Source: Escherichia coli O127:H6 str. E2348/69 (GTDB lineage Bacteria > Pseudomonadota > Gammaproteobacteria > Enterobacterales > Enterobacteriaceae). From it: a stretch of 64,000 nucleotides of DNA. Both the position numbers and the translations under genes were made by a program. How positions within the stretch are numbered: the stretch's first letter is position 1; each line of letters begins with the position of its first letter. The stretch lies in NCBI RefSeq assembly GCF_000026545.1, contig NC_011601.1; one strand, written 5' to 3'. The notes beneath the pieces were generated by a model, which worked only from the letters and a program-made list of their open reading frames with translations, did not search any database and was not told where the DNA came from. Shown piece after piece: positions 2,508 to 19,630 of the stretch.

Positions 2508-2941
2508 TTGCATTAATTCAACGCGTAACCCGTGCCAGCGTCACCGTGGAGGGAGAAGTGACGGGTGAAATTGGCGCGGGACTTTTGGTGTTATTGGGTG
2601 TCGAAAAGGATGACGACGAACAGAAAGCAAACCGTCTGTGCGAGCGTGTGCTCGGCTACCGCATCTTTAGCGATGCCGAAGGCAAGATGAATCTCAACGT
2701 GCAACAGGCGGGCGGCAGTGTACTGGTGGTTTCCCAGTTTACCCTTGCCGCAGATACCGAACGGGGGATGCGCCCAAGTTTCTCCAAAGGCGCATCACCG
2801 GATCGCGCAGAGGCGTTATATGACTATTTCGTCGAACGCTGCCGTCAGCAAGAGATGAACACGCAAACAGGACGCTTCGCTGCGGATATGCAGGTATCGC
2901 TGGTCAATGATGGCCCCGTGACATTCTGGTTGCAGGTATGA
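2504..2941 (+). CDS. dtd: D-aminoacyl-tRNA deacylase
   Basis: 145 aa, N-terminus MIALIQRV; 4-bp overlap with yihY. Confidence 0.93.
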
Positions 2942-3927
2942 GCCAGCTTCCAGGGTTGTCACGGGAAACAAGAGAGAGTATCGCTATGTATCACCTTCGG
3001 GTTCCACAAACAGAAGAAGAATTAGAGCGTTACTATCAGTTTCGCTGGGAAATGTTGCGTAAGCCCCTGCATCAACCAAAAGGTTCGGAACGCGACGCGT
3101 GGGATGCGATGGCGCATCACCAGATGGTCGTCGACGAGCAGGGTAATCTGGTAGCGGTAGGCCGACTGTATATTAATGCCGACAATGAAGCGTCCATTCG
3201 CTTTATGGCCGTTCATCCCGACGTGCAGGACAAAGGGTTAGGCACGCTGATGGCGATGACCCTGGAGTCGGTGGCACGTCAGGAAGGCGTTAAGCGCGTG
3301 ACCTGTAGCGCCCGTGAAGACGCGGTGGAGTTTTTCGCCAAGCTGGGGTTTGTTAATCAGGGAGAAATCACCACGCCAACCACCACGCCGATTCGCCATT
3401 TTTTGATGATTAAACCCGTCGCCACTCTGGATGATATTCTTCATCGCGGCGACTGGTGCGCCCAGCTCCAGCAAGCGTGGTATGAACATATCCCGTTAAG
3501 CGAAAAAATGGGTGTGCGCATTCAGCAATATACCGGGCAAAAATTTATCACCACCATGCCGGAAACCGGCAATCAGAATCCGCATCACACGCTGTTTGCC
3601 GGGAGTTTATTCTCGCTGGCTACGCTCACCGGTTGGGGGCTTATCTGGCTGATGCTGCGCGAACGCCACCTCGGCGGAACGATTATTCTGGCGGATGCGC
3701 ATATCCGCTATAGCAAACCGATTAGCGGTAAACCCCATGCGGTAGCCGACCTTGGTGCCTTAAGTGGCGATCTCGACCGTCTGGCGCGCGGACGAAAAGC
3801 GCGGGTACAAATGCAGGTCGAAATCTTTGGCGACGAGACGCCGGGTGCAGTGTTTGAAGGCACGTATATCGTTCTGCCCGCGAAGCCATTTGGCCCGTAT
3901 GAAGAGGGCGGGAACGAAGAAGAGTAG
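2938..3927 (+). CDS. yiiD: bifunctional GNAT acetyltransferase/thioesterase-domain protein
   Basis: 329 aa; size and position after dtd as in K-12. Confidence 0.88.
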
Positions 3928-3944
3928 GGGCGTTTTACTTGACT

Positions 3945-3973
3945 GAAAAGGTTTTCAATCTGAAAACCTTTTC
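3945..3973 (+). terminator. perfect 12-bp stem hairpin (GAAAAGGTTTTC-loop-GAAAACCTTTTC) after yiiD
   Basis: inverted repeat read directly; lies between yiiD (+) and the convergent esterase gene (-). Confidence 0.6.
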
Positions 3974-3990
3974 TGGGCCCTGGTCCGGAG

Positions 3991-4941
3991 TTACCTTCCC
4001 GCTCTCCAGGCAACATCCCGTAGCGCCGATCGCGCAGCCTCACTGATACCACCTAACTGAAAAAATCCGTGGATAACGCCAAGGTAGCGTTGGCAGGTGC
4101 ATTGCACTCCTTGCCCTGTCATGCGGTGATACAACGCTTCACCTTCATCGCAAAGTGGGTCGTATTCAGCGGTAATGATATGTACAGGTGGCAATCCATT
4201 GAAATCATTGCGCCAAATAGGGCTGGCTTCAGGATGCCTGCGTTCAATGCCTGGCAGGTACATCTCAAAGCCGCTCAGTAAAGTGTCGCGTGTGATGATG
4301 TAATCGTGACCATTGCGTATGTAGCTTTCGAAATGCGCAGTCGCATCAAGCATAGGATAAATTAAGATGAGTTGTGCTGGTTGCCACTCGCCAGCACGCT
4401 TCAATCGCAAAGCAGTTACCTGCGCCAGATGCCCTCCCGCACTGTCACCGGCAAGAGTTATTCGTTGTTTATCAACGCCGAGTCGTTCGGCGTGTTGCCG
4501 GACTAATTCTGCACCTCGTTGTGCATCATCATGGGCGGCGGGGAAAGTATGTTCCGGTGCCAGCCGATACTGGACGGCAATAATCCGACATTGCCCGTAA
4601 TAGGCTAACTGGCGCAGCTGGTTGTCGTGAGTTGCGAACCCGCCGCTAACAAAACAGCCACCGTAGTAATAAATTATCGTCGGGAGTAATGTCGGGGCAT
4701 TCAGCGGTGACACTATTCGTAAGGTCATCCCTTCAAGTTCGATAGTCTGAATATCTACCCGCGTTTCTGTCTCACCCGCAAGGACAGCGCTGGCGATATA
4801 GCCCTCTCTGCGCTGCGTAATACTTTGTTGGCGCGATGAGGGGCGACCCGCAGCGATAAACTCTTCGACTAACTCTGCAATTCCTTTTTCCAGTGCCATA
4901 GTAGAACTCATTTTGCTGTATGAATGTACAGTTTTATACAC
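3991..4941 (-). CDS. alpha/beta-hydrolase fold esterase/lipase (Aes/HSL-family-like)
   Basis: GDSAGG nucleophile-elbow motif and YGGCF oxyanion-hole-like motif; true start uncertain (candidates at M1, M11, M15 of the track ORF); not expected at this position from K-12 order. Confidence 0.7.
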   Translation of the reverse strand: MYKTVHSYSKMSSTMALEKGIAELVEEFIAAGRPSSRQQSITQRREGYIASAVLAGETETRVDIQTIELEGMTLRIVSPLNAPTLLPTIIYYYGGCFVSGGFATHDNQLRQLAYYGQCRIIAVQYRLAPEHTFPAAHDDAQRGAELVRQHAERLGVDKQRITLAGDSAGGHLAQVTALRLKRAGEWQPAQLILIYPMLDATAHFESYIRNGHDYIITRDTLLSGFEMYLPGIERRHPEASPIWRNDFNGLPPVHIITAEYDPLCDEGEALYHRMTGQGVQCTCQRYLGVIHGFFQLGGISEAARSALRDVAWRAGR

Positions 4942-5073
4942 CCGTTTTTACTGGATGGATACAGGGAAATTCACGGGCGTGAAAAATCTGGAAAGCGCCT
5001 CGCAAATGTAAAGACAAACCCGGCAGAGACGTGGTTTTGCTGGAGCACTATCAGTAAGCTAGTGGTTTCAAGG

Positions 5074-5090
5074 GTACGTCAATGACGTAC
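5074..5090. promoter_or_regulatory. perfect palindrome GTACGTCA-A-TGACGTAC upstream of the toxin-antitoxin pair; putative antitoxin operator
   Basis: 8-bp inverted arms read directly, about 40 bp upstream of the higB-like ATG; a TATAAT hexamer also sits at 5121-5126. Confidence 0.4.
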
Positions 5091-5127
5091 AAAAAGGATT
5101 GTTACTCTAAGCCAATGGCGTATAATT

Positions 5128-5439
5128 ATGCTCTTCATCGAAACGGAAATTTTTACTGAAGATGTTCAAAAACTGCTGACCGACGATGAATTCAGTCGTT
5201 TTCAGTTTTTCCTGGCCTTGAATCCTGACTATGGTGAGGTAATACCTGAAACTGGTGGGTTAAGAAAGGTTCGATGGGTGTCAGGAGGAAAGGGGAAACG
5301 TGCTGGTGTCAGGGTTATTTACTTTCATCAGGTTAAACATTATGAGATCAGATTACTGCTTATTTATCGTAAGGGTATTAAAGATGATCTGTCTCCCCAG
5401 GAAAAAGCAATGCTCCGGTTGTTAAATACGAGGTGGTAA
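5128..5439 (+). CDS. RelE/HigB-superfamily toxin (type II TA)
   Basis: 103 aa, basic, toxin-first order, stop abuts the antitoxin ATG; sequence style typical of HigB-like addiction-module killers. Confidence 0.7.
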   Translation: MLFIETEIFTEDVQKLLTDDEFSRFQFFLALNPDYGEVIPETGGLRKVRWVSGGKGKRAGVRVIYFHQVKHYEIRLLLIYRKGIKDDLSPQEKAMLRLLNTRW

Positions 5440-5730
5440 ATGGATAAGGCACTTTTTGAGCGGTTGACTCACAGCATGGCCCAGATGAATGAAATTATTG
5501 AAGGAACGCGACAGCCTTCGCGGACTTTTGAAGTTGATGCTATGAAAATCAAAGAAATACGCCGCGCTTCAGGGTTGTCACAATCTAAATTTGCCGATCT
5601 TATTTCTGTAAGCGTAGACACGTTGCGTAACTGGGAGCAGGGGCGACGTTCACCGACCGGGCCTGCAAAGGCTTTGCTGCGAGCGATTGCCAATGATCCG
5701 CAACATGTGCTGCAAGCACTTAACCGTTAG
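5440..5730 (+). CDS. XRE-family HTH antitoxin (HigA-like)
   Basis: 96 aa; HTH signature SGLSQSKFADLISVSVDTLRNWEQGRR; ATG immediately after the toxin TAA with GAGGTGG SD inside the toxin 3' end. Confidence 0.7.
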   Translation: MDKALFERLTHSMAQMNEIIEGTRQPSRTFEVDAMKIKEIRRASGLSQSKFADLISVSVDTLRNWEQGRRSPTGPAKALLRAIANDPQHVLQALNR

Positions 5731-6198
5731 AGGCATGGTTATGCCATACAGAAAGCACCAGCATTCAGAACTCCTGTGAAAGCGGCGTAGTGCCACCTGC
5801 TCAGGAGTTTTGCTATGACCCGTAATCGTGCTGACCGTTGCCACCCTATGATGCGATTAAAAAAACTCATCGTCGCGCCGATGATTGACGTCAATGCTAT
5901 CGGATGATGTCAGGGGTGTTCCGGAAGGAATTCCTTGTTTCCCGAACTGTTACCAACAAAATTATAACGATGAGCAAGTTAAGACCGGTTGGTAGCAGTA
6001 CTGACCGGTCTGTGATGGATGATTAATTTCACCTTAAATCCGGGTGCTGTTAGGATGCTGACATTTTTCGGCTACACCATTCAGATTATGCAATTAAAGA
6101 TCCAATCAAAAAATAAACATCCCTGTATATAATATATTCATAGCACCTATAATTCATTTTGGGCGATAACTAAACCATTTTTGAGTAACAAATGAAAC

Positions 6199-6242
6199 AA
6201 CTGCAACGGACTTATTATTTCTGGAAAACGTCTCGCAAAAAC
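6199..6242. repeat. copy 1 of a ~45-bp motif (AACTGCAAC...TCTGGAAAACGYCTCGCRAAA) upstream of yiiE
   Basis: direct comparison with the second copy at 6647-6691, roughly 75 percent identical by eye. Confidence 0.5.
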
Positions 6243-6334
6243 AAAACAATATGAAAAAATCCGCTTTCGTTAATTAACTTTCCGGCGTAATTTTCGCACA
6301 TACATTAATGAGTAATATATGTAAGGTGGTGGTA

Positions 6335-6553
6335 ATGGCGATGAATACGGTTTTTCTTCATTTATCAGAAGAGGCAATTAAACGGCTGAACAAGCTTCGG
6401 GGATGGCGTAAGGTTTCGCGCTCTGCAATTTTACGCGAAGCGGTAGAGCAATATCTGGAGCGGCAGCAATTTCCGGTGCGTAAGGCAAAAGGCGGCAGGC
6501 AAAGGGACGAGGCAGTTGGTGTTGAAGAACTATGTAAGCAGCATAAGGAATGA
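6335..6553 (+). CDS. yiiE: ribbon-helix-helix (CopG/MetJ-like) small regulator
   Basis: 72 aa from MAMNTVFLHLSEEAIKRL; position between yiiD and fdhE; symbol could equally be the paralog yiiF. Confidence 0.6.
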   Translation: MAMNTVFLHLSEEAIKRLNKLRGWRKVSRSAILREAVEQYLERQQFPVRKAKGGRQRDEAVGVEELCKQHKE

Positions 6554-6646
6554 CAAAAAGATTTTTTCATTCTTGAATATAAAAACAAAAAACCAGATGA
6601 CCTTATTCTGGTATTAATACAAGGTTGTTTTACTTGAACTTATAAT

Positions 6647-6691
6647 AACTGCAACTGTTACATCATATCTGGAAAACGCCTCGCGAAATAC
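6647..6691. repeat. copy 2 of the ~45-bp motif, downstream of yiiE with no ORF following
   Basis: see copy 1; nothing of at least 60 aa lies between it and the fdhE stop. Confidence 0.5.
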
Positions 6692-6776
6692 GAGAGATTT
6701 TGCGGGAATAGCAGGTGTCGTCACACCCTATGAGCTGTAATCCGGGCGACCAGCGCCACCCGGAAAACGTCAGAGA

Positions 6777-7706
6777 TTACTCCCCTTCACCCGGAAACAG
6801 GAACGGGTTAATGGAACTACGGGCATAGCCTTCTTGCTCCATTCGCGCGTCCAGTACCAGAGAGGCGAGGTCATCTGCCACGGCTTCAACTTTCGGTTCT
6901 TTTTCCTGATAAAGAATCTTCAGGTAAGTGCCGCAGTCATCGCAGCTTTCGGCTTTAATCGCGGCCTGTTCGTCATCCAGCGACCAGTAATGCAGTTTGC
7001 CGCTCTGTTCACAGTTGCTGCATTTTACGCGCACTACGTGCCATTCAGTTTCACACAGGTTGCAGCGCAGGTAACGCAGACCCTGAGTGGTGCCAATTTG
7101 CACCATGCTGGACACCGGCATAGAGCCACATACCGGGCAATATTGACGTTGTTCGCCGTATTCAGCGCGGGCTTTGCCGGGGATCAGATTAGCCATCTGC
7201 GCCCAGTAGAGCGACAGCGCAGCCCAGATAAACGGCGCTTTATCGCTGCTGACGGACGAGAAATCAGAGGCAAACAGCGCGCTGGCCATATCTTCCAGCT
7301 CCTGAGTCGATGCCTTCTCCAGATTCTCAATCACTGCCAGCGCCGGGCCGCTCATTTCAGGTTTCAGCTCAGCAATTAGCGCCATCAGCAGCTTTTGCCA
7401 GTGCTTATCACGCGGCAGAACGTGAATATCCAGCGGGGGCTTGCCCTGTGCGCTGGCTTCTTTAATGCGCGCGGTCAGATCCATCTCCAGCGGATGGTCG
7501 TACAGCACCACTTCCTGGGCGTGGGCGATAAGCGCAGCAAAGCGCAGGTAATCACCCAGCGGATTATTTTCTGCCAGCTCGCGCAGACGCTCGGCGCGGC
7601 GGTTGTATAAATTCTTGAGCCGAGGGAACAATAACGGCGGAATCATATCCGCCGTACGTTTCTCGCTCGAACCCAGCTCATCTTGCGGGATTATGCGAAT
7701 ACTCAT
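6777..7706 (-). CDS. fdhE: formate dehydrogenase accessory protein FdhE
   Basis: 309 aa; CxxC pairs; K-12 order. Confidence 0.93.
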
Positions 7707-9249: not shown

Positions 9250-12200
9250 TTACACCTTTTCCACATTCACAAGGAAGGACTTAAACTCCGGCGTCTGCGT
9301 GTTCGCATCACCGACGAATGGCGTCAACGTATTGGCAATAAAGCCTTTTTTCGCAACACCTTCATAGCCCCAGTGAATCGGAATACCGATGGTATCGATA
9401 TCTTTGCCGTTTGCTTTCAGCGTGCGAATACGTTTGGTCACTACCGCTTTGGCTTTGATATAGCCACGGTTGGAGGAGACTTTCACAGTATCGCCCTGGG
9501 CAATGCCAAGTTTATTCGCCAGCGACTCCCCGATTTCCACAAACTGCTCTGGTTGCAAAATCGCATTCAACAGCGCGTGTTTGGTCCAGTAGTGGAAGTG
9601 CTCGGTCAGACGATAGGTGGTTCCGACATACGGGAACTTATCGGCTTTACCCAATGCTTCGGCGTCGTCTTTAAAGATACGCGCAGCCGGGTTCGAGATA
9701 ACGTTTGGATGCAGCGGGTTAGTTCCCAGCGGCGTTTCAAACGGCTCGTAGTGTTCCGGGAACGGACCTTCCGCCATCTTATCGAGGGCAAACAGACGTC
9801 CCATGCCTTCCTGCTGCATGATAAACGGCCCTACGCCGCTGCCCGGAGGCGCTGCGCTGTAGTCCGGAATATCCCAGCCGGTCCACTTAGTGCCGTCCCA
9901 TTTCAGCAACTGACGCTTCGGATCCCATGGGTTACCCTGCGGATCTGCGGAGGCGCGGTTATACAGAATGCGGCGGTTTAGCGGCCATGCCCATGCCCAG
10001 CCCAGCGTGTTACCGAGGCCAGACGGATCGGCGTTATCACGACGCGCCATCTGGTTGCCTTCCGGCGTCCAGCTACCGGCGAAAATCCAGCAGCCACAGG
10101 AGGTTGTACCGTCATCGCGCAGTTGGGCGAACGAGCTAAGTTGTTGGCCTTTCTTGACGATAACCGCACCGGTTGCCGGGTCGGTAATATCGGCCAGCGC
10201 TTTGCCGTTGCTCTCCATTGCCACTTCTTCTGAAGATGGCTCATGCGGAATGGCGTAGTTCCAGGTCATGTTCAGCACCTGGTCCGGGTTCGCGCCACCC
10301 TGTTCGGCATACATCTTGCGCAAGCGCAGGAAGATACCGGAGAGGATCTCGCCATCAGTCAGCGCAATCCCCGGGGCGTCCGCACCTTTCCAGTGCCACT
10401 GTAACCAGCGACCTGAGTTAACGATAGAACCGTTCTCTTCCGCGAAGCAGGTCGATGGTAGACGGAACACTTCGGTCTGGATCTTCGACGAGTCAACTTC
10501 GTTCAGCTCACCGTGGTTCTGCCAGAAGTTAGAGGTTTCAGTGTTCAGCGGGTCGATAGTCACGAGGAATTTCAGCTTCGACAGACAGCCGATCACTTTG
10601 TTTTTGTTCGGGAATGAGGCAACAGGGTTAAAGCCCTGGCAGATATAGCCATTGACCTTGCCTTCTTTCATCATCTCGAAGTATTGCAGGACGTCGTAGC
10701 CTTTATCCCACTTCGGCAACCAGTCAAAGCCCCAGCTATTTTCCGCCGTCGCTTTATCACCAAAGAAGGCCTTCATCATAGAGACGAAGAATTTCGGGTA
10801 GTTGCCCCAGTAGTTTACCTGGCCTTCCAGCAGCGGTTTTGGCGTGTTGGCGGTAAGGTAGGTTTGCAGATCGGTCTGCTTCTCGCTTGGCAGCGTCATG
10901 TAACCTGGCAGGCTCTGCGACAGCAGCCCCAGGTCGGTCAGCCCCTGAATATTGGAGTGACCGCGCAGGGCGTTAACGCCGCCGCCAGCCATCCCCATAT
11001 TGCCGAGCAGCAACTGGATCATCGCCATCGTACGGATGTTCTGCGCACCGATGGAGTGTTGCGTCCAGCCGAGCGCGTAAAGGAACGAGGCAGTTTTATC
11101 GTGAGCACTGGTTTCGGCGATGTATTCGCAGACTTTCAGGAATGCGTCTTTTGGCGTACCACAGATGTTTTCAACCACATCTGGCGTGTAGCGGGAAACG
11201 TGCTGTTTCAGCAAGTTCCACACGCAACGTGGATGTTGCAGGGTAGTATCGCGTTTGGCGAAGCCGTTTTCGTCCAGTTCGTAAGTCCAGGTGGACTTAT
11301 CGTACTTGCGTTTTTCCGCGTCGTAGCCGGTGAACAGGCCATCTTCAAAGCCGTAATCCTCACGCACGATCAGGCTAGCGTTGGTATAGGCTTCGGTGTA
11401 TTCGCGGTTGAATTTTTCATTGTTCAGCAGGTACAGCAATACGCCTGACAGGAAAGCAATGTCAGTACCGGAACGGATAGGGGCATAGTAGTCAGCCACC
11501 GCCGCTGTACGTGTAAAGCGAGGATCGATCACAATCAGCTTCGCGCCGTTGTGAATTTTGGCTTCCATCGCCCAGCGGAACCCGACCGGGTGAGCTTCAG
11601 CGGCGTTACCGCCCATCACCACGACGAGGTTGGCATTCTTGATGTCGACCCAGTGGTTGGTCATCGCACCGCGACCAAATGTTGGAGCAAGACTTGCTAC
11701 CGTTGGTCCGTGTCAGACACGCGCCTGGTTGTCGACCGCGAGCATACCCAGCGCGCGGGAGAATTTTTGCGTTAAATAGCCGGTTTCGTTACTCGACGCG
11801 GAAGCACACAGCATCCCGGTGGAGAGCCAGCGGTTAACAGTCACGCCTTCGGCGTTTTGCGCAATGTAGTTCGCATCGCGGTCTTCTTTCATCAGTTTGG
11901 CGATGCGATCAAACGCCTCTTCCCAACTGATTTGCTGCCATTTATCAGAACCTGGCGCACGGTATTCCGGAAACTTCAGGCGGCTTTCGGAGTGGATGAA
12001 ATCCACCAGGCCAGCGCCTTTCGGACAAAGTGCTCCGCGGTTGACCGGGTGATCCGGGTCACCTTCGATATGGAAGATAGATGCTTTGGCGTTTTTTGCT
12101 CCGTCACCGAGGCTGTACATCAACAGCCCACAGCCTACGGAACAATAGGTGCAGGTATTACGGGTTTCGCGGGTGCGCAGCAGTTTATACTGCCGGGTTT

Positions 12201-12300
12201 CCGCGAGTGCTACGCTGGGTGCAAAACCCAGTGCCGCTGCCGTGGTGCCTGCCATACCGCCAGCGCAGATCTTAAAGAACTGCCTTCTGCTGACCTGCAT
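9250..12300 (-). CDS. fdoG: formate dehydrogenase-O major subunit, selenoprotein (in-frame UGA = Sec at 11713..11715)
   Basis: track ORFs 11713..12300 (195 aa, Tat signal SRRQFFK) and 9250..11664 (804 aa) are in one frame separated only by TGA; joined length is 1016 aa. Confidence 0.92.
11668..11712 (-). other. SECIS-like hairpin immediately 3' of the fdoG UGA
   Basis: mRNA reads UGA-CACGGACCAACGGUAGCAAGUCUUGCUCC..., a stem with an AGUC-type apical loop resembling the fdhF SECIS. Confidence 0.6.
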
Positions 12301-12493: not shown

Positions 12494-13330
12494 GTGAAAA
12501 AAACACAGCAAAAAGAAATCGAGAATGTGACAAATATCACAGGTGTTCGTCAAATTGAGTTATGGCGGCGTGATGATTTACAACACCCACGGTTAGATGA
12601 GGTGGCGGAAGAAGTTCCCGTTGCGCTGGTCTACAACGGCATTTCGCATGTGGTGATGATGGCGTCGCCCAAAGACCTTGAGTACTTTGCGCTCGGTTTT
12701 TCGCTTTCCGAAGGAATTATCGAAAGCCCGCGCGATATCTTCGGCATGGATGTCGTTCCTTCCTGTAATGGCCTGGAAGTACAAATTGAGCTTTCCAGCC
12801 GCCGCTTTATGGGGTTGAAGGAACGCCGCCGGGCGCTGGCGGGACGTACGGGCTGTGGCGTATGCGGTGTAGAACAGCTTAACGATATCGGTAAACCGGT
12901 GCAGCCGCTGCCGTTCACCCAGACGTTTGATCTCAACAAACTGGATGATGCATTACGTCATCTCAATGATTTCCAGCCAGTGGGGCAACTGACTGGTTGT
13001 ACTCACGCCGCTGCATGGATGTTGCCATCTGGCGAACTGGTCGGCGGGCATGAAGACGTGGGTCGCCATGTGGCGCTGGACAAACTGTTAGGCCGCCGGT
13101 CACAAGAAGGGGAAAGCTGGCAGCAAGGTGCGGTGCTGGTTTCCAGCCGTGCCAGTTATGAAATGGTGCAAAAGTCGGCGATGTGCGGCGTAGAGATTTT
13201 GTTTGCGGTGTCTGCCGCGACCACACTTGCTGTAGAAGTGGCTGAGCGCTGTAATCTGACGCTGGTGGGCTTTTGTAAACCGGGTCGGGCAACGGTTTAT
13301 ACCCATCCGCAGCGTTTGGTTCATAATTAA
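12494..13330 (+). CDS. fdhD: formate dehydrogenase sulfurtransferase FdhD
   Basis: 278-aa ORF from a GTG start, divergent from fdoG. Confidence 0.9.
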
Positions 13331-13337
13331 AGAAATA

Positions 13338-13373
13338 CCGCAATTCTGATTCTGGATTGCGGTTTTATTTTTC
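13338..13373 (+). terminator. rho-independent terminator after fdhD
   Basis: CCGCAAT...ATTGCGG stem followed by TTTTATTTTTC. Confidence 0.65.
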
Positions 13374-13640
13374 TATTAAATAATCCTCAATATATTATTC
13401 AGCATTTAAATAATAATTTCACCACAATAAATTATCTCGTTAATTCCGGTTTATATCGATATACTCCGGTCGCATTAATCCTTTAAGAATTAATCATTAT
13501 TTATATAAGACATTTTGTTTTAATCATCGCGTCAATAAATAAATGTTTCTGATGAGTGAATGCAAATAACAAACCTTGCACCGGTTGTAAAAACAGCAAT
13601 GTATTTTCAATAGTGGGTGATGGATTATGAGTATTGAAAA
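13374..13640 (+). promoter_or_regulatory. strongly AT-rich leader/promoter region upstream of the Hsp90-paralog cassette
   Basis: GC roughly 25-30 percent by eye; TTGCAC at 13576-13581 as a possible -35; no precise promoter assigned. Confidence 0.3.
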
Positions 13641-15476
13641 ATGAGTACATTACAGTTACCTGGCAGTTCATATTCTACTGAAGTTAATTTAAACGGCTTA
13701 ATTGAGGTGCTCAGTAAGCACCTTTACTCTACCCCCGTGGTCGCCGTGCGCGAGCTGGTGCAGAACGGACACGATGCGATCGTGCGCCGCAGGATTGAGC
13801 AGCCCGATGCGCCAAAGGATAACCAAATTCGTGTGGTGGCAGACGTGGCGAAGTCCACCATCACCATTACCGATACCGGTGCGGGTTTGACAGAAAGCGA
13901 AATTCACGGCTTCCTGGCAACAGTGGGCGTGGGTTATACCCGAATGTTGCGCCAGCAGGATGACAACACCGGTTTAATTGGTATGTTCGGCCTTGGTTTC
14001 TTGTCAGCATTTGTACTTGCAAAAGAGGTCACGGTGTTGACCACATCCTGGCAAACGCCGGATCAGAGCTGGAAATACCACTCTACCGACGGGCAAAAAT
14101 ATACCGTTACGCCGCATCAGTCCTCGGAAACGGGAACGCAGGTGATTCTGACGCTCAAAGAAGAGTACAGCCATCTGGCGAGTAACAATTTGCTGAACCG
14201 CGTTCTTTCCCGCTACTGTGTATTGCTGCACGAACCGGTCTATGTCGGCGATGCCAGCGAGCCGGTAAATAAACTTCAACCACCGTGGCGTGAAGTTGCC
14301 CCCGAAGGCGTAACCATACACCGCGCGCTGGTACAGCGTAAAAATCTCGCCTTTGCCGCCCAGTTTGAATCCTCCTTCGAACCGATTTGCACCATTCCGG
14401 TGGTGCCAGCGGGAATGAGCGACGCGGTTGGGATTTTATGGATTCAGGATGGCGCGACCTACGGCACCAGCGATAACCGCAACCTGTCGTTGTTTTTGCG
14501 CGGCATGTTACTGGATGATGAAGCGCGTGAGTTGTTACCGCCCTGGGCCGGATTTATTGGCGGCGTGATTGAGTCATCGAAACTGACGCCGACGGCGAGC
14601 AGGGAAGATCTCCAGCGGGATGCAACCTGGGTTGCGGTACAGGAGGCGTTAAAAGAGGCGCTGATTTCTGGTTTGTCCGATCTCGCACAAAATCAGCCAG
14701 AAATCTGGCGGCGGGTATTAATGCGCCACAACGAAGCGTTGCTGGGTGCGGCCTTGTGTGATGACCGTCTGTTTGATTTGCTCAAAGATCGCTTGCAGGT
14801 GCCAACGTCAAAAGGGGCGCTGCTGGCGAAGGATTTACGCGTTAATAACAGCATTCATATTCTGTTAAGCCGCGACGGCGGTTTTGAAGAGATGTTGTTC
14901 CATATTCTGCAACGGCCTGTAGCCCGTGGCGATCGCTATGCGGTGGTGCCATTTTTACGCCGTTGGGCGCTGTTATATCACTGCCGGATTGTCGAAGTCG
15001 GTACGCAAACGGGTAATGAGCAGTTGTTCAGCCTGGCAGAATTACCCAAAGAGCAGGTGGCTTATCTGGAAGAGCATCTCTGCGACGGCGAGCAATTAAT
15101 TATCTCACGCTTCGAACCCGCCGTTTTACCGTTAGTGGTTACACCAGACCGCGAAGCAGAATTAAAACAAATTCTCGAACAGGATGACGCAGATAAACGC
15201 ATCAGTACCGCAGCGTTAATGCTGGCGCGGCAATTTACCTCGCAAATCCAAAAATCTAAAACTTCAAGTCTGTATATCAACCTTAATAACCCCTGTGTCA
15301 TGCAACTGGTGACGGCCTTACAACACCATCAACAGCCAGCGGCAGCATTACGGTTATTAAAATCGCTGAAAGTGATTTTGTGCTCCAGCGGTAATAAAGA
15401 ACAGCAGTGGGATTTACACCAGGCACTGGAAGATTTTACTCAGGTTATTCCTGTCTTAATTAATCAAGGAAAATAA
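13641..15476 (+). CDS. divergent Hsp90/HtpG-family paralog (GHKL ATPase with Hsp90 middle domain)
   Basis: 611 aa; N-terminus aligns by eye to HtpG: YSTEV..LYS..VRELVQNGHDA (HtpG FQSEV..LYS..LRELISNASDA), ITDTGAGLTESE (ISDNGVGMTRDE), GLIGMFGLGFLSAF (QLIGQFGVGFYSAF); middle domain LFLRGMLLDDEARELLP...IESSKLTPTASREDLQ (LYVQRVFIMDDAEQFMP...IDSSDLPLNVSREILQ). Confidence 0.8.
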   Translation: MSTLQLPGSSYSTEVNLNGLIEVLSKHLYSTPVVAVRELVQNGHDAIVRRRIEQPDAPKDNQIRVVADVAKSTITITDTGAGLTESEIHGFLATVGVGYTRMLRQQDDNTGLIGMFGLGFLSAFVLAKEVTVLTTSWQTPDQSWKYHSTDGQKYTVTPHQSSETGTQVILTLKEEYSHLASNNLLNRVLSRYCVLLHEPVYVGDASEPVNKLQPPWREVAPEGVTIHRALVQRKNLAFAAQFESSFEPICTIPVVPAGMSDAVGILWIQDGATYGTSDNRNLSLFLRGMLLDDEARELLPPWAGFIGGVIESSKLTPTASREDLQRDATWVAVQEALKEALISGLSDLAQNQPEIWRRVLMRHNEALLGAALCDDRLFDLLKDRLQVPTSKGALLAKDLRVNNSIHILLSRDGGFEEMLFHILQRPVARGDRYAVVPFLRRWALLYHCRIVEVGTQTGNEQLFSLAELPKEQVAYLEEHLCDGEQLIISRFEPAVLPLVVTPDREAELKQILEQDDADKRISTAALMLARQFTSQIQKSKTSSLYINLNNPCVMQLVTALQHHQQPAAALRLLKSLKVILCSSGNKEQQWDLHQALEDFTQVIPVLINQGK

Positions 15477-15477
15477 A

Positions 15478-17784
15478 ATGGATACATGGGAGTGGTACAA
15501 CAAATATAGTCAAGAGTTGCGTGATGCCGGGCAAGAATATATTCCGCAGCTTATTGATGATTTTTCAGAAAGTGTTTTGCACCTACAAATAGAAAAATGT
15601 GATTCGCTATTGCCGGAAATGAAAGCACTGAATCAAGTCGCCAAAAATCCGTGGCTGGAAATATTTATTGGTCACTGGGAAATGCGTCATCGCCTGACTA
15701 ACTATGAAGAAGGTGAAAAGGTGCTGCCAGACGTGGTAGCGCTGTTTGAAAAAGCGCATCGGGAAGAGGCGAAAGATTGCCCGCAATCTATCTGCGTTAC
15801 CCAGGATTTATCAGCCTGCTACGAAAATATTGACGCACCAGGCTGGGCGAATGAACGCATGGCGGTGTGTGAAGAAACCATCGCGCGCATTGATCCGACC
15901 TGGAGCTGTTTTCAGTGTTTGTCCACTGAATATGCCAGCGCACTGATAGATTCCAAAAGAACAGAGGAGGCACTGGCTTATCTGGATCGGCAAATCGACG
16001 CAGTTAAAGCAGCCGGGAAAGATGATATTGATCCATTACTTTATACTCGCGCCGATATTCTGATTGAACTTCAGCGTTATGATGAAGCACGCAAATTGAT
16101 TGATGAGCTGACAGAAGCCAATGATTACTGGGGCCGCGACCGCATTAGTAATCACCTAAAAAAACTGTACATCATGGCGTTATGCGGGCAGGACGAAGAA
16201 GTCTGGGAGGAATTACCGCGTTGGTCCGATCTGACTCCGCATTCATGGGGGTCATGGCTGAAAATCATTACTGTGTTACTTCCCCGTCATCCACAAAGAA
16301 ACAACTGGCAACTGGCGCGCATCATCCAGAAAATGCTGGAGCAACGTTCACAGGCCGGGGCGCATCGAAAAGTGGTTAATCTGGCAAAACTACAAATCAC
16401 CCTGGCGCTGGAGCGTGAATCCGTCTGGGTTGCCAAAATAGCGATGAAACTGGCCCAGCGACACATGCCAAAATTACGCGCGTTACTGGGCGTCGATCGC
16501 GAGTTTCTCGAACTTAGCGAAAAAATCGCCACCAAAGAAGCAGAGTTGCTTGCTCGTCCGGTTGTAGAAGTACCTGAAAATAGCGACGAAGAAACGCAGC
16601 CAGATCCAGAAAAAGACGTCGAAATATTCCGCCGCGCTTATCTGAACACACCAGACGATGCAGAGTTACTGGGCAAACTGGTCAATGCGTTAAATGCCTG
16701 TAATGCGATTAATGAGTCAATTGAACTTCTGCAACGCTATGTTGAAAGCCACCTCCATGAAGATAATGGTCTTTGCTTCGATCTGTTGGATTTATTGCTC
16801 CACCGTGACGATCTGCAAACCATTGAGCACCTGGCGAAGCAGTATGAACAGGCGGGGCTGCTACATATGGCCTTGTGGTTCCGGGCGCGAGTGATCAACC
16901 AACAGGAAGACTGGAGTGAACTGGAGTCGATTGGACAACAGTTGCTGCAAAACGAAAAAGGGCGTGAGTGGGTTGGCGTTTATCGCATGTGCTCCTGGGC
17001 AGCACAAAAACAGGAAGCCTGGGATCGACAGCTGGATTATTTACAACAATTGCAGCAACTGATGATTAGCCGTGAAGAAGATATTCGTAATCTCCAGTGG
17101 GATATCATGGCGACCGCCAGCATCCTGCAACAATGGGATTTGGTTCGTGCTATTGCTGCTGAACTGGAAATCGAACTCACGGAAGGTGAAGGTTTTATTG
17201 ACGAAAAATGGGGGCTGCTAAACATTCGCTTCCGGGAAAATTATGAATACCGCTATTACTATGCTCAACGTATTGGGCCGGTAACCGCAAGGATCATTGA
17301 GCCAACTTACCGGACCGATTATCCGCAACATGTTGATGAGGTTGTGGTATTCGATGCAGAAATGTTGAATACCCGACCAGAGGATGAGGAAGAGCAGAAG
17401 AATTTCACTCCGCTTTATGGGTGCCTGAAAACCATTATCCCGACCGAATACGGCGAGTCCTGGTTCTGCGAAGGTGTCATGCCTGGTGAAGAAGAGTTTA
17501 ATACTTTCCGTGAGGCGCTCCGTGAACGAAACTGGTACTACTGGAGCAACAGTAATGACGACTATACGTTAACGGACAGTCATCAAGGAGAAGGCGCTGA
17601 GCCGCTGTCTGCATTCTATTTTGTTATCAGTGCGCCGCGTTCAGTTTCTAAAGGTGATATCGACAAGACCTTGCACGAATTGACCGCTGACTGGAAACAT
17701 CCGTTGTGCTGGTGGCGTCTTGCCAAAGAAGCCGGGGCGAATGAAGAGAAACATGCTGCTATTGCCGAGAGATATGGAATGTAA
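15478..17784 (+). CDS. 768-aa acidic, predicted all-helical repeat protein of unknown function, coupled to the Hsp90 paralog
   Basis: ATG one nucleotide after the upstream TAA; long uninterrupted ORF; TPR-like amphipathic segments; Trp/Tyr-rich C-terminal region; no catalytic motif I can name. Confidence 0.65.
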   Translation: MDTWEWYNKYSQELRDAGQEYIPQLIDDFSESVLHLQIEKCDSLLPEMKALNQVAKNPWLEIFIGHWEMRHRLTNYEEGEKVLPDVVALFEKAHREEAKDCPQSICVTQDLSACYENIDAPGWANERMAVCEETIARIDPTWSCFQCLSTEYASALIDSKRTEEALAYLDRQIDAVKAAGKDDIDPLLYTRADILIELQRYDEARKLIDELTEANDYWGRDRISNHLKKLYIMALCGQDEEVWEELPRWSDLTPHSWGSWLKIITVLLPRHPQRNNWQLARIIQKMLEQRSQAGAHRKVVNLAKLQITLALERESVWVAKIAMKLAQRHMPKLRALLGVDREFLELSEKIATKEAELLARPVVEVPENSDEETQPDPEKDVEIFRRAYLNTPDDAELLGKLVNALNACNAINESIELLQRYVESHLHEDNGLCFDLLDLLLHRDDLQTIEHLAKQYEQAGLLHMALWFRARVINQQEDWSELESIGQQLLQNEKGREWVGVYRMCSWAAQKQEAWDRQLDYLQQLQQLMISREEDIRNLQWDIMATASILQQWDLVRAIAAELEIELTEGEGFIDEKWGLLNIRFRENYEYRYYYAQRIGPVTARIIEPTYRTDYPQHVDEVVVFDAEMLNTRPEDEEEQKNFTPLYGCLKTIIPTEYGESWFCEGVMPGEEEFNTFREALRERNWYYWSNSNDDYTLTDSHQGEGAEPLSAFYFVISAPRSVSKGDIDKTLHELTADWKHPLCWWRLAKEAGANEEKHAAIAERYGM

Positions 17785-17881
17785 GCGGCACTAACGTTTG
17801 TCCGACTCTGGTGTAGCTGAACGGTGAAATCCCAGGTCGGACAACAAACCGTACTAACGGGGGGCCCAAAAATTGTGTCTC

Positions 17882-19630
17882 TCACCCCTGACGAAGTAAC
17901 GCCATAAACGCTTCATACCCTGTTAACCTGGCAATAGTTTCCGCCGGATGCTGACACAGGACGCTGGCAAGATAGCTGAATATTTTCAACTCGTGACGCG
18001 CATCGGCGGCGGCACAGGCGATCAACACGTGGTTAATGACTTCGTTATTCACCTCGATCGGGTGGGCGAGGGTAATAAAAAATCCACGAAAACGTCGCTC
18101 CTGCTCGCTCCAGCAATGTGGGATGGCGAGGCGATTAACAATCAGGTTTTCACCTTCGCCTTCGCGGGCGATGATGCGTTGTGCTTCATCGGTGGTAATA
18201 TGGTGTTGCGTCACTAATTGCGCACAAATTTGCCGGGTAATATGTTGCCAGCTTTCACCGCGTACATTCGAATAATGAAAACTTCCGGGGGCAGAGAAAA
18301 AACGCTCCGGTTGCTGGCGAATAAATGCCGTCGCCAGAAAATGTTTTATTTGTTCGATACCGGCAGCCGTAATGATATTTTTTACGGTGATGTAATTATT
18401 TACCGCGTCATCCAGTAAATAATGGCTGTTGTTAATGATCAATAACGGCTCAATTTCTTCGCGAATGGCAACAAGTTCGCTTAAGCTACGGGCAATAATC
18501 ACCCGACAATTTAAAACATCGCGCTCAATGGCGAGCTGATTAATAGTGGCAATCGCGTTCTGATCAGAGAGCAAAATGATCGGCTGGCGTTCGTTTTGAT
18601 GCCGTTCCAGCGCACAGGCAAAATACAAACCGATCAGATCGCTGTCGAAAAGGGGAATATCGAGTTGTTCACGCAGTAGCGTAATAAAGTGCAGACTCAT
18701 ATCAAAGGCCGCAGGCCAGGCGGCTTTCAGGTTATTCATGCTGCTTTGGCGGTGCTCACCAATCCACACCGGCGCGGCAAGGCAACGTAATAAATGCCCG
18801 GTAATATTCTCAACCAGCTGCGTATCAATAATATTCAATGACGCGATGCCCGGCACCCTTTGCAGCAACCCCTGCACATTATCGGCAGAAATTACCTGTG
18901 CTTGCTGATGCTGTTTCTCTATCAAACCTGTCAGGGTTCTTACAGCGTTATCACCAAGAAACATGCCGCTTTGTTCAACGATTTGTTTTATCTCGTCACC
19001 GGGATATTGCGGCCACTCATCGGTCAGTTGATTACGCAGGGCGTAAATAGCCAGTATCAGGCTGGAGAGATAATCACCCTGCATAAGCGGCAAGCGGTGT
19101 TGGTTGTCGCAGGCTGTGGATAAATGCTGAAGGTTGTCTCGTGTTACGCCAGCCAGAGGAATTAAAAACGGATCTTTGCGCAGCAAGTTCGCCAGCAAAA
19201 TAACGCGTTTCTCTTCTGTCTCATCAATGAAATGGCCCAAACCGGGGCGACTGGCCAGGCAGCAAGTGCGCTCATAACGTTGCTTTAATCGTGGCAGACG
19301 CTCTGCGACCCACGTTTCTGGCAAATTAAGCGCCGAGGCGAGCTGCGCACGGGGAGTAAAGGTATTCAGTAATAACAACGCCAGCAGCCGATCGTCGTTA
19401 TCGTGCTTTTGCAGCAACTGAAAAAAGCTGCGGCGCTCGAAGATTTCCAGCTGATAGCCCGCACTACCACTGGCAGAAATGCGGGCTTTGCCGTTAAGGG
19501 TAAAGTTGAGATAGTCAATATCACGCAGTATGGTCCTGCCAGAAACGCCAGTCTGTTGCGCCAGCTCACCAGGCGTGCGCGGCTGTTGCTCCAGCAGATC
19601 GACAATCTTTAACTGGCGTTCGTTTAGCAT
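17882..19630 (-). CDS. frvR: frv operon transcriptional regulator
   Basis: 582 aa, N-terminal HTH, K-12 size and order. Confidence 0.9.
   Translation of the reverse strand: MLNERQLKIVDLLEQQPRTPGELAQQTGVSGRTILRDIDYLNFTLNGKARISASGSAGYQLEIFERRSFFQLLQKHDNDDRLLALLLLNTFTPRAQLASALNLPETWVAERLPRLKQRYERTCCLASRPGLGHFIDETEEKRVILLANLLRKDPFLIPLAGVTRDNLQHLSTACDNQHRLPLMQGDYLSSLILAIYALRNQLTDEWPQYPGDEIKQIVEQSGMFLGDNAVRTLTGLIEKQHQQAQVISADNVQGLLQRVPGIASLNIIDTQLVENITGHLLRCLAAPVWIGEHRQSSMNNLKAAWPAAFDMSLHFITLLREQLDIPLFDSDLIGLYFACALERHQNERQPIILLSDQNAIATINQLAIERDVLNCRVIIARSLSELVAIREEIEPLLIINNSHYLLDDAVNNYITVKNIITAAGIEQIKHFLATAFIRQQPERFFSAPGSFHYSNVRGESWQHITRQICAQLVTQHHITTDEAQRIIAREGEGENLIVNRLAIPHCWSEQERRFRGFFITLAHPIEVNNEVINHVLIACAAADARHELKIFSYLASVLCQHPAETIARLTGYEAFMALLRQG

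Follow-up and report, generated by a model that had tools for sequence, protein, structure and literature searches.

A two-gene operon in Escherichia coli as a candidate bacterial Hsp90 with its own built-in partner

Between fdhD and frvR, the chromosome of Escherichia coli O127:H6 strain E2348/69 carries two adjacent genes, here called A and B, which RefSeq labels "ATP-binding protein" (WP_000105780.1) and "tetratricopeptide repeat protein" (WP_000382016.1). An earlier note, made from the letters of a 64,000-nucleotide stretch of this chromosome (the window; all coordinates refer to it), read the first gene as an additional Hsp90 and the second as its dedicated partner. This arrangement raises three questions: whether the two genes form a unit, how they came to occupy this position, and what an Hsp90 tied to a single partner might do.

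Layout and linkage of the two genes

The locus comprises the following features.

13337 to 13373, + strand: intrinsic terminator of fdhD, the upstream edge of the cassette (terminator scan and sequence)
13374 to 13640, + strand: AT-rich leader (~30% GC, from composition), the presumed A-B promoter region
13641 to 15476, + strand: gene A (611 amino acids [aa]; ATG start; WP_000105780.1; ORF list), predicted divergent Hsp90-family ATPase
15467 to 15480, + strand: A-B coupling junction, consisting of AGGA in the end of A, TAA, 1 nt, and the ATG of B (sequence)
15478 to 17784, + strand: gene B (768 aa; ATG start; WP_000382016.1; ORF list), partner protein
17785 to 17881, no strand: B-frvR junction, 97 bp from the stop of B to the stop of frvR (sequence and fold)

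The ORF list and the junction sequence (...GGA AAA TAA A ATG GAT...) bear out the earlier description of two same-strand ORFs of 611 and 768 aa with a single-nucleotide spacer. The AGGA lies 7 to 8 nt 5' of the ATG, inside the 3' end of gene A, and is a plausible ribosome-binding site for B. The dN/dS values (0.03 to 0.05 for A; 0.09 to 0.12 for B) indicate that both genes are under purifying selection. Given that A and B are long, conserved across phyla, and have dN/dS values of 0.03 to 0.12, they are not chance ORFs.

Upstream, the terminator scan placed the fdhD hairpin at 13337 to 13363 (10-bp stem), followed by a T-run, with about 280 bp of 30% GC DNA between the terminator and gene A. 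The AT-rich DNA reported ahead of the pair is thus real (GC fraction, 0.297 in 13300 to 13599; about 0.5 to 0.58 in the flanks). Because the megablast matches of the listed E. coli carriers begin at query positions 1 to 3, the leader is part of the cassette haplotype in these genomes. No sigma-70 consensus on the + strand of the leader passed a strict promoter scan, and an Rfam scan of the leader and cassette returned 0 matches; an A-B promoter in the leader is therefore presumed.

The two genes travel together well beyond E. coli. The testable species loci, which span the Gamma-, Beta-, and Alphaproteobacteria, Acidobacteria (Holophaga), Chloroflexi, and Actinobacteria (Kitasatospora), numbered 76, and in 75 of them an A-type gene immediately preceded B in the same orientation. 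With B as the query, an A-type gene was directly 5' of B in seven of seven metagenome or genome contexts; in the reverse direction, both of the A-subfamily representatives checked (332 and 368 bits) had a B homologue as the next gene. Members of the next Hsp90 clade (about 250 to 260 bits) had a transketolase operon downstream and no partner gene. The A-B spacing in other taxa lay between a 1-nt overlap and 36 nt for most loci (126 nt in locus L100), and the A and B distance matrices were correlated (r = 0.82, a value reached in 0 of 999 permutations). The pair was counted in at least 200 species-level genomes from several phyla; almost all of the Xanthomonas and Stenotrophomonas species genomes returned had it, as did both of the divergent Pseudomonas aeruginosa genomes sampled. 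No third gene family common to A-B loci was found across genera. The A-B pairing is close to obligate and jointly inherited, and the earlier view of a tightly coupled, co-conserved unit holds for the 75 loci, the seven contexts, and the loci found with A.

That A and B are chance neighbours with no functional link is accordingly a very remote prospect. Thorsellia anophelis, in which B is present with no neighbouring A, fits such a view; adjacency, strand, and order are nevertheless kept in 75 of 76 loci while all other neighbours vary, and the correlated distance matrices also speak against it. The linkage and the changing neighbours effectively refute this explanation.

The orthologous pair of P. 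aeruginosa (locus L002; B about 40% identical) has the same order and tight spacing, with a LysR gene on one side and branched-chain amino-acid ABC transporter genes on the other. From synteny and PAO1 gene numbering, we take this locus to be PA1068/PA1069. In the literature, these two genes occur only in omics tables, with no function assigned. The PA1069 protein was detected in P. aeruginosa proteomes, where it was reported to be Ca2+ and biofilm induced and described as "operonic" with the Hsp90 gene (PMC4053335); PA1069 is also a putative AmrZ target (PMC3946381), and its mRNA drops about 4-fold at 46°C (PMC4957987). Text matches to "PA1069" and "PA1068" in two other papers (PMC9729221 and PMC8315991) were discarded because they are, or appear to be, strain numbers. 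A search of the literature on either gene and on bacterial Hsp90 co-chaperones found no functional study of the pair, which agrees with its earlier designation as undescribed; the P. aeruginosa pair had merely been noted as apparently operonic.

Predicted features of the two proteins

The following segments were delimited in A and B.

13734 to 14162, + strand: GHKL ATP-binding domain of A (aa 32 to 174; Pfam, TRAP1 alignment, and conservation)
14460 to 14699, + strand: middle-domain segment of A (aa 274 to 353; Pfam HSP90 match)
15478 to 16551, + strand: N-module of B (aa 1 to 358), predicted to be all-helical and TPR-like (alignment A1, AF2, and hhalign)
15778 to 15918, + strand: four invariant cysteines of B, C101-P-Q-S-x-C106 ... 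C144-x-x-C147 (alignment of 42 sequences)
16606 to 17163, + strand: second TPR block of B (aa 377 to 562), ten predicted helices (AF2)
17212 to 17781, + strand: C-terminal alpha/beta domain of B (aa 579 to 768)

Protein A was assigned to the Hsp90 family by Pfam (HATPase_c_3 at residues 32 to 174; HSP90 at 274 to 353), by NCBIfam, and by alignment with TRAP1 and HtpG structures (residues 10 to 359; E values of about 1e-30 to 1e-27), as the earlier note had proposed. It scored 287.7 bits over residues 13 to 571 against the NCBIfam model PRK14083/NF010683, "HSP90 family protein" (cut-off, 455), and 198.4 bits against the HtpG model NF003555 (cut-off, 371). Being under both cut-offs, A belongs to a separate subfamily and is an equivalog of neither model. 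The ATPase motifs RELVQNGHDA (E38, N42, and D45), D78-T-G-A-G, and G-M-F-G-L-G-F (113 to 119) align with the GHKL (Bergerat) motifs of TRAP1 and HtpG and are conserved in 47 family representatives. In the middle domain, the catalytic-loop motif T-A-S-R-E-D-L-Q (R321 at nt 14601 to 14603) aligns with LSRELLQ/VSREILQ of TRAP1 and HtpG and has a conservation of at least 95% across the family. By these alignments, A is a divergent Hsp90-family protein with all ATPase residue classes intact (E38, N42, D45, DxGxG, GxFGxGF, and Arg321). The claim that it is an extra Hsp90 also stands: housekeeping htpG is near-universal in E. coli (5,424 of 5,426 complete genomes), which makes A an additional Hsp90, and A is 26% identical to E. 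coli HtpG.

The NF010683 alignment of A extends to residue 571, and those with solved Hsp90s extend to about residue 360; the C-terminal 250 residues had no detectable similarity to solved Hsp90 C-domains, so dimerisation of A is assumed. At their C termini, A-family proteins vary, with neither a conserved acidic tail nor an EEVD-like motif. Docking of the eukaryotic TPR/MEEVD kind is therefore inapplicable, and another interface must be assumed.

Full-length members of the B family are about 750 to 800 aa long. The AF2 model of B (pLDDT, 91.9; pTM, 0.78) has 28 helices in residues 3 to 562, a predicted TPR solenoid, interrupted after the helices of residues 3 to 358 by a low-confidence linker (359 to 376). 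The N-module upstream of this linker is the best-conserved part of B in alignment A1. Beside a more distant A-type Hsp90 (locus L097), the partner is a protein of 352 aa that corresponds to the N-module alone and keeps CPQSxC...CxxC; residues 1 to 351 of B match it (L097:2577-3632) with an hhalign probability of 99.9%. Since this short partner equals the N-module with its cysteine motif, the N-module is marked out as the part tied to the Hsp90 paralog. The partners flanking another more distant Hsp90 paralog (locus L099) were rejected as relatives of B (hhalign probabilities, 14% and 0.1%).

Within the N-module, C101, C106, C144, and C147, together with D110, Y115, D119, and E151, do not vary among 42 sequences with 27 to 76% identity to B. 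The cysteine motif is retained in the 352-aa partner and in one 26%-identical member. In the AF2 model, each cysteine pair sits at or beside the N-terminal end of a helix (102 to 135 and 143 to 158). The site is a putative zinc or redox centre, and it is the CX4C...CX2C pattern that suggests metal binding by B. Hsp33 works by a Cys4-Zn switch, and this precedent, together with the retention of the four invariant cysteines (CX4C...CX2C) in every variant, including the short partner, would suit a redox- or metal-stress chaperone in which the Cys4 site of B is a Zn-thiolate redox switch that activates A-B under oxidative or metal stress. The response of PA1069 abundance to Ca2+ and biofilm conditions points in the same direction (PMC4053335). 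A structural Zn site accounts for the invariance equally well, however, and no oxidative-stress expression data for the pair were found in the literature; we regard a stress switch of this kind as improbable.

In the second TPR block, profile matches to positions 375 to 545 of B were consensus TPR, OGT, and IFT proteins, and Foldseek comparison of the whole model with the PDB picked up no more than generic solenoids of the TPR type and of other helical-repeat types (e.g., PPR). The C-terminal domain carries the motifs RxGPVTARI, VVFDA, PEDEEE, and DGxxPGEE, and its end has the family consensus ERYGL (ERYGM in the E2348/69 protein). Its modeled fold is ferredoxin-like and restricted to the B family. 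When B or its C-terminal domain was used in profile searches of PDB sequences, the outcome was TPR matches or nothing. Searches of B against PADLOC, PHROGs, NCBIfam, and Pfam gave weak TPR matches alone and no catalytic family, in keeping with the earlier remark that the second ORF lacks a recognisable catalytic motif. B, with a confident TPR-type solenoid and a predicted nonenzymatic ferredoxin-like domain, fits a scaffold or binder and not an enzyme.

These features also bear on the idea of a dedicated chaperone-client or signalling module, in which B would be the sole substrate or output of A, an obligate client or switch flipped between states at the expense of ATP, and would in turn signal or regulate by means of its TPR and C-terminal domains. 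Nothing resembling an output domain (DNA-binding, kinase, cyclase, or the like) was detectable in B, and its ACT-like similarity is generic. The 352-aa partner, moreover, has no C-terminal half, so that any output of B would have to sit in the N-module. We consider such a switch possible but unlikely.

History of the locus and the question of defence

A and B are carried by 254 of 5,426 complete E. coli genomes (4.7%). The two further E. coli carriers examined show the order fdhD-A-B-yiiG(-frvR), as do Escherichia sp., E. whittamii, and Superficieibacter, and the fdhD-linked position of the pair is the same, or nearly so, in Escherichia, Superficieibacter, and Salmonella. In Salmonella, the pair is sporadic and apparently missing from LT2. 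In most E. coli genomes, fdhD and yiiG are contiguous; they are split in about 261, a number near the 254 carriers. Across the 5,426 genomes, IS1 copies, either inside yiiG or at the junction, were the only other cargo seen in the fdhD-yiiG slot, which is essentially two-state. The fdhD-A-B-yiiG order across carriers and relatives makes the pair look like an ancestral feature that about 95% of E. coli have lost, and its patchy presence in E. coli (4.7%) and Salmonella indicates that the module is dispensable there. A search of 72,556 plasmid records gave B in 3, and at least one of these (11.85 Mb) is actually a chromosome; the single "phage" record with B is a Salmonella contig. The chromosomal surroundings are syntenic housekeeping genes. 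On this evidence, the pair looks like an old chromosomal module without sign of recent insertion.

The earlier picture, in which the pair stands in for yiiG as accessory DNA in a variable slot, is thus wrong in general, although one part of it describes E2348/69 itself. K-12 homology in the window ends at 13318 and restarts at 17882, and a tblastn search of the window with YiiG gave 0 matches: yiiG is absent from the fdhD-frvR slot of this strain but kept in other carriers examined. The yiiG-less A-B form was seen in E2348/69 and isolate SC477, both with the 97-bp junction, which stands where yiiG and its intergenic DNA would be. The junction contains a 12- to 13-bp inverted repeat (TTTGTCCGAC...GTCGGACAA), is without exceptional structure (folding z-score, -0.84), and shows no similarity to the B-yiiG and yiiG-frvR spacers of other carriers. 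A repeat element was considered for it and rejected, as it is single-copy, occurs in only 6 of the 5,426 complete E. coli genomes, and has an ordinary folding energy.

The sporadic occurrence in E. coli (254/5,426) and Salmonella and the AT-rich DNA upstream are compatible with an anti-phage or conflict system: B would detect a phage component with its TPR surface, whereupon A, as a GHKL ATPase, would power an abortive or inhibitory response. Both GHKL ATPases and TPR sensors are known from defence systems. The N terminus of A weakly matches the PADLOC TmtA and type II restriction endonuclease (REase) models (best E value, 5e-6), and some Hsp90-like proteins are encoded by phages (A against PHROG 32952; E = 4e-19). 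In the accessible part of the DefensePredictor material, "Molecular chaperone HtpG" stands beside defence-type names in a supplementary table whose columns are of unestablished meaning; the WP accessions of the pair and of the two other carriers examined were not in the tables seen, and no Hsp90/TPR system was found in the corresponding portions of text and supplements.

Other observations weigh against defence. No PADLOC v2 family matches A or B whole, with 0 matches for B, and the pair has no effector domain. Its neighbours are housekeeping genes with no defence genes among them, and none of the neighbouring families is shared between genera. In E. coli, the slot is essentially two-state, with IS1 copies as the sole other cargo, and synteny extends across Escherichia species, Superficieibacter, and Salmonella. 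The distribution, patchy in E. coli (4.7%), is near-universal in the Xanthomonas and Stenotrophomonas species genomes returned, and the two divergent P. aeruginosa genomes also have the pair. Plasmid and phage copies are essentially nil (3/72,556 plasmid records; one misfiled "phage" record), and selection is strongly purifying with no sign of diversification. The suggested defence role therefore found no positive evidence in PADLOC, the neighbourhood, the plasmid and phage counts, or the near-universal presence in some genera, and we judge it doubtful. An equally speculative variant is a surveillance or immune module, in which the TPR and C-terminal surfaces of B would recognise a foreign (phage) or damage-associated protein and ATP hydrolysis by A would lead to growth arrest or inhibition of the invader. 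It seems to us quite unlikely; if true, it would mirror in bacteria the HSP90-SGT1-RAR1 logic of plants and add a class of defence without a nuclease, NADase, or pore effector.

Proposed function and comparison with known systems

The reading that we prefer, at roughly even confidence, is that A and B form a self-contained two-component chaperone machine of the Hsp90 type, with B as the obligate co-chaperone or adaptor. A, predicted from its residues to be an ATP-hydrolysing Hsp90 paralog, would have B as its built-in co-chaperone or adaptor. The N-module of B, with its probably Zn-binding four-cysteine centre, would dock onto A and tune the ATPase cycle, and the second TPR block and the C-terminal domain would bind a particular client or ligand. 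In this proposal, the binding of B to A, the action of B as a co-chaperone, the metal site, and the identity of the client are inferences. The decrease in PA1069 mRNA at 46°C is unlike a classical heat-shock chaperone and counts against a chaperone machine. The B gene of Thorsellia without an adjacent A and the dispensability of the pair in E. coli and Salmonella are further observations on that side.

We conclude that the pair is a real two-gene operon and a candidate bacterial Hsp90 with its own built-in partner. The clients and raison d'être of bacterial Hsp90 are still poorly defined. In this case, one partner with a minimal conserved Cys4 N-module is genetically welded to a distinct Hsp90 subfamily, and a misreading is corrected: the cassette looks like an old resident lost by most E. 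coli, and not an island inserted for yiiG. The pair is tractable for chaperone biology, given a single ATPase with a single partner, short and long partner forms that occur in nature, E. coli carriers and noncarriers, and a P. aeruginosa pair apparently conserved in divergent strains. It allows study of the regulation or targeting of a bacterial Hsp90 and of whether Hsp90-TPR partnerships have more than one origin.

Among known systems, GHKL defence and restriction systems (PADLOC TmtA, BbrUII/HgiDII-type enzymes, and MORC-like modules) have the Bergerat/GHKL ATP-binding fold in common with A. Their matches cover just the first 55 to 185 residues of A (BbrUII model, 5.5e-10 and 38 bits with a cut-off of 550; other TmtA and REase models, 6e-4 to 4e-3), whereas A has an Hsp90 middle domain with the catalytic Arg. 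In contrast to these systems, A-B is without a nuclease, methylase, or other effector, defence-island context, or mobile-element carriage.

HtpG and its deep-branching paralogs are closer. A second, divergent HtpG copy is already known in some bacteria (deep-branching Groups B/C, Chen et al. 2006; PMC1525184), and these proteins have in common with A the fold family, the ATPase residues of the N and middle domains, and the absence of an MEEVD tail. A is only 26% identical to E. coli HtpG, is under the NCBIfam cut-offs, and has a C-terminal third with no detectable similarity to solved Hsp90s; in contrast to both HtpG and the nearest unpaired clade, A-type genes have one specific partner gene downstream. 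Bacterial Hsp90 has been stated to be without identified co-chaperones (PMC7926864).

The other likeness is to eukaryotic Hsp90 and its TPR or Cys/His-rich co-chaperones, in that an Hsp90 ATPase is combined with a predicted TPR solenoid bearing a putative Cys-rich metal site. Eukaryotic co-chaperones of these types include Hop/Sti1, PP5, Sgt1, and CHORD proteins. B matches none of them by sequence or fold beyond generic TPR similarity, and A, unlike eukaryotic Hsp90, has no EEVD-type tail for a carboxylate clamp. In contrast to the eukaryotic co-chaperones, B is encoded in the same operon as its Hsp90.

Two adjacent genes for a divergent Hsp90 and a helical-repeat protein

In the Escherichia coli E2348/69 window, which is 100% identical to NZ_CP059840.2, the gene pair lies downstream of fdhD, with the following layout (gene coordinates from the ORF list).

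13337-13363, upstream of gene A: fdhD terminator hairpin and T-run
13641..15476, + strand: gene A, 611 aa
15478..17784, + strand: gene B, 768 aa

By composition, the ~270 bp upstream of A have ~30% GC. The A/B junction reads ...GGA AAA TAA A ATG..., with an AGGA located 7 to 8 nt 5' of the B ATG, and cotranscription with translational coupling is plausible from this arrangement. The stop codon of B is 97 bp from that of the convergent frvR. The two-gene pair described in the earlier note was therefore borne out in its ORFs, one-nucleotide spacer, fdhD terminator, and AT-rich upstream DNA. Its view of the module as undescribed also held: the RefSeq labels (A, "ATP-binding protein"; B, "tetratricopeptide repeat protein") are nothing more specific than that, and a literature search found no paper assigning a function to A-B.

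Also in the window, an in-frame TGA (11713-11715; ...DNQARV-TGA-HGPTVA...) caused the ORF finder to break the formate dehydrogenase alpha-subunit gene (9250-12300, - strand; annotated fdnG here and fdoG in K-12) in two. This TGA is the enzyme's known selenocysteine codon and not the mark of a pseudogene.

Pfam places HATPase_c_3 at aa 32 to 174 and HSP90 at aa 274 to 353 of A. Among NCBIfam models, NF010683 ("HSP90 family protein") aligned with aa 13 to 571 at 287.7 bits (under its cut-off of 455), and the HtpG equivalog model scored 198.4 bits (under its cut-off of 371). TRAP1 and HtpG structures aligned with aa 10 to 359 (E, 1e-30 to 1e-27), the last ~250 residues matched no solved Hsp90, and identity to E. 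coli HtpG was 26%. A retains the catalytic Glu (E38), Asn42, Asp45, D78-x-G-x-G, and G-x-F-G-x-G-F, as well as a middle-domain Arg (R321, within TASREDLQ); these ATPase residues, including R321, are conserved among 47 subfamily representatives. In the same 47 sequences, the C-terminal tail is not conserved and an MEEVD-like peptide is absent. A is a divergent Hsp90 and is predicted to be ATPase competent. Because canonical htpG is present in 5,424 of 5,426 complete E. coli genomes, A is an additional Hsp90, as the earlier note had proposed. Deep, divergent groups of HtpG paralogs were recognized in 2006, in a paper that did not mention partners (PMC1525184).

For B, an alignment of 42 sequences (27 to 76% identity to the query) was used as input for an AlphaFold2 model (pLDDT, 91.9; pTM, 0.78), in which the following parts were distinguished.

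aa 3-358: helical repeats
aa 359-376: low-confidence linker
aa 377-562: second block, ten TPR-type helices
aa 579-768: alpha/beta domain

Across the 42 sequences, conservation is by far the highest in the N-terminal 160 residues, and invariant positions include W59, H66, R72, C101-P-Q-S-x-C106, D110, Y115, D119, C144, C147, and E151, among others. Both Cys pairs are located at or beside the N terminus of a predicted helix, and the CX4C...CX2C pattern suggests a putative Zn or redox center. With such a center in B, a redox- or metal-gated variant of an A-B machine can be envisaged, which we consider quite improbable. Whole-model Foldseek and profile searches recovered only generic TPR or other helical-repeat proteins. 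When the C-terminal domain was modeled alone (pLDDT, 94.6), the 50 AFDB50 matches listed all either shared the architecture of B at 750 to 800 aa or were shorter, the latter mostly flagged as fragments. No enzyme- or effector-like feature was found in B by PADLOC, NCBIfam, Pfam, PHROG, or PDB profile searches.

Pairing of A and B across bacteria

An Hsp90-like gene was located directly upstream of B in all seven contexts compared (P. aeruginosa, Xanthomonas, Cronobacter, one Nannocystaceae genome, and three metagenomic contigs), while every other neighbor differed. When 100,044 species, each represented by a single genome, were surveyed, at least 200 relatives of B were found, and the best 80 loci were analyzed for context. 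An A-type gene was directly upstream on the same strand in 75 of the 76 of these loci with enough upstream DNA, which supports the view in the earlier note of A and B as a unit. Hosts of B included Escherichia, Superficieibacter, Phytobacter, Kosakonia, Budvicia, Xanthomonas, Stenotrophomonas, Lysobacter, Pseudomonas, Azovibrio, Azoarcus, Duganella, Variovorax, Holophaga, a Chloroflexi MAG, and Kitasatospora. The sole exception among the 76 loci was Thorsellia anophelis, in which the 4.7 kb preceding a full-length B homolog (4755-7061 of locus L079) contain no A-type Hsp90; a 520-aa ORF located there is unrelated to A. Clustering of all flanking ORFs revealed no third gene family common across genera, the other multigenus clusters being only shadow ORFs inside A or B or generic ABC ATPases. 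A chance adjacency of A and B is effectively excluded.

In a search against 1.84 billion cluster representatives, the A subfamily formed a block at ≥330 bits (36 to 52% identity), after which scores fell to ~250 bits. Of the two lowest-scoring block members that were checked, one has a 774-aa B homolog directly after it and the other (locus L097) a 352-aa protein corresponding to B residues 1 to 351 (hhalign, 99.9%; E, 4e-33). Two checked members of the next Hsp90 clade have a transketolase operon downstream and no partner. The A-B partnership is thus specific to the A subfamily, and the N-terminal module of B (aa 1 to 358) is the minimal partner, since the short protein corresponds to this part. 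The short partner (2577-3635) keeps CPQSxC...CxxC and has neither the second TPR block nor the C-terminal domain. The A and B distance matrices were correlated (r = 0.82; a value reached by 0 of 999 permutations in a Mantel test), which fits joint inheritance of partners that were not swapped.

At locus L099, a more distant Hsp90 paralog scoring ~250 bits to A is closely flanked by proteins of 543 and 416 aa (353-1984 and 3877-5127) that lack a Pfam match and are not convincingly similar to B. Dedicated partners may thus exist in other clades of Hsp90 paralogs as well.

History of the slot, mobility, and defense

The cassette was present in 254 of 5,426 complete E. coli genomes, always complete and always chromosomal, and most copies were just 90 to 95% identical to that of E2348/69. 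The dN/dS ratios were 0.03 to 0.05 for A and 0.09 to 0.12 for B (dS, 0.15 to 0.42); judged from sequence, the alleles of both genes are old and functional. The adjacent frvR is as divergent as A and B. Compared with three other loci (L014, L015, and L016), frvR (17882-19630) had 87.6 to 95.8% nucleotide identity, dS of up to 0.53, and dN/dS of ~0.1. Such divergence of frvR is unusual within E. coli, so that deep haplotypes characterize the whole fdhD-frv region and not the cassette alone.

The earlier note had interpreted the pair as a replacement of yiiG at a variable locus. This was not borne out: the order is fdhD-A-B-yiiG-frvR in the two other E. coli carriers examined, and the same order occurs in an Escherichia cryptic-clade genome, E. 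whittamii, and Superficieibacter, for which reason an island displacing yiiG was rejected. In Salmonella Infantis, A-B is a few genes downstream of fdhD. Among the 5,426 genomes surveyed, yiiG was present in 5,387, and the fdhD-yiiG junction was contiguous in most and split in two places in ~261, which tallies with the carrier count. No alternative cargo was detected at this junction save IS1 copies, observed inside yiiG or at the junction in several K-12-like genomes (H21 to H26); these explain a small number of the split junctions. The simplest account takes fdhD-A-B-yiiG as the ancestral order, from which A-B was lost in most E. coli. The E2348/69 haplotype is rare: its 97-bp junction (17785-17881), where other carriers have yiiG and spacers, was found in 6 of 5,426 genomes (three O127:H6 and three environmental isolates), and both copies examined (E2348/69 and isolate SC477) are without yiiG. 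This spacer carries a 12- to 13-bp inverted repeat and did not match the spacers of other carriers.

The suggestion that A-B is a defense or conflict system gained no positive evidence from mobility, PADLOC, DefensePredictor, neighborhood, or distribution, and we regard it as distinctly unlikely. PADLOC v2 has no model for A or B and gave only weak GHKL-level matches; the E. coli accessions were not found in the portion of the DefensePredictor tables consulted, which is weak evidence. B occurred in 3 of 72,556 plasmid records, including an 847-kb P. aeruginosa replicon and an 11.85-Mb Nonomuraea "plasmid" that is plainly a chromosome; NZ_LT559118.1 and NZ_CP131792.1, among these records, look misfiled or chromosome-like. 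The sole "phage" record with B (AFYI01000005.1) is a 156-kb contig from the Salmonella Infantis chromosome, and such misfiled records do not count as signs of mobility. Neighbors in the seven contexts are ordinary metabolic and regulatory genes. Among the matches listed, A-B was carried by almost all species genomes of Xanthomonas and Stenotrophomonas and by two P. aeruginosa genomes, one PAO1-like and the other that of strain PA7.

Cronobacter (L008 to L010) was the only examined context with toxin-antitoxin-type neighbors, namely, two hok/gef-family toxin genes just upstream of A-B (4894-5596); a dynamin-like GTPase gene is located a few kb downstream.

A proposed specialized Hsp90 machine with a dedicated partner

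The most economical reading, to which we give about even credence, is that A-B is a specialized Hsp90 machine with a hard-wired partner. In the mechanism that we infer, A would act as an ATP-driven clamp, the Cys4 N-terminal module of B would serve as a conserved interface or regulator, and client or ligand specificity would come from the additional TPR block and the C-terminal domain present in long-form B. An ATP-driven switch with B as the sole client or output of A is an unlikely reading of the same pairing.

The P. aeruginosa B ortholog, PA1069 (numbered by synteny with PAO1), was detected as a protein, reported to be induced by Ca2+ and in biofilms, and described as apparently operonic with an Hsp90 gene (PMC4053335). 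PA1069 is a putative AmrZ target (PMC3946381), its mRNA was ~4-fold lower at 46°C (PMC4957987), and it is among the proteins listed from a BatR pull-down (PMC13411936).

The conserved A-B pair is a solid and unusual finding for bacterial chaperone biology and is directly testable, its mechanism being the inferred part. Eukaryotic Hsp90-TPR docking uses an EEVD clamp, whereas A has no conserved tail, which excludes docking of this kind. Bacterial Hsp90 has been stated to be without identified co-chaperones (PMC7926864); A-B is a previously undescribed module in which an Hsp90 comes with an obligate TPR/Cys4 partner encoded in the same operon.
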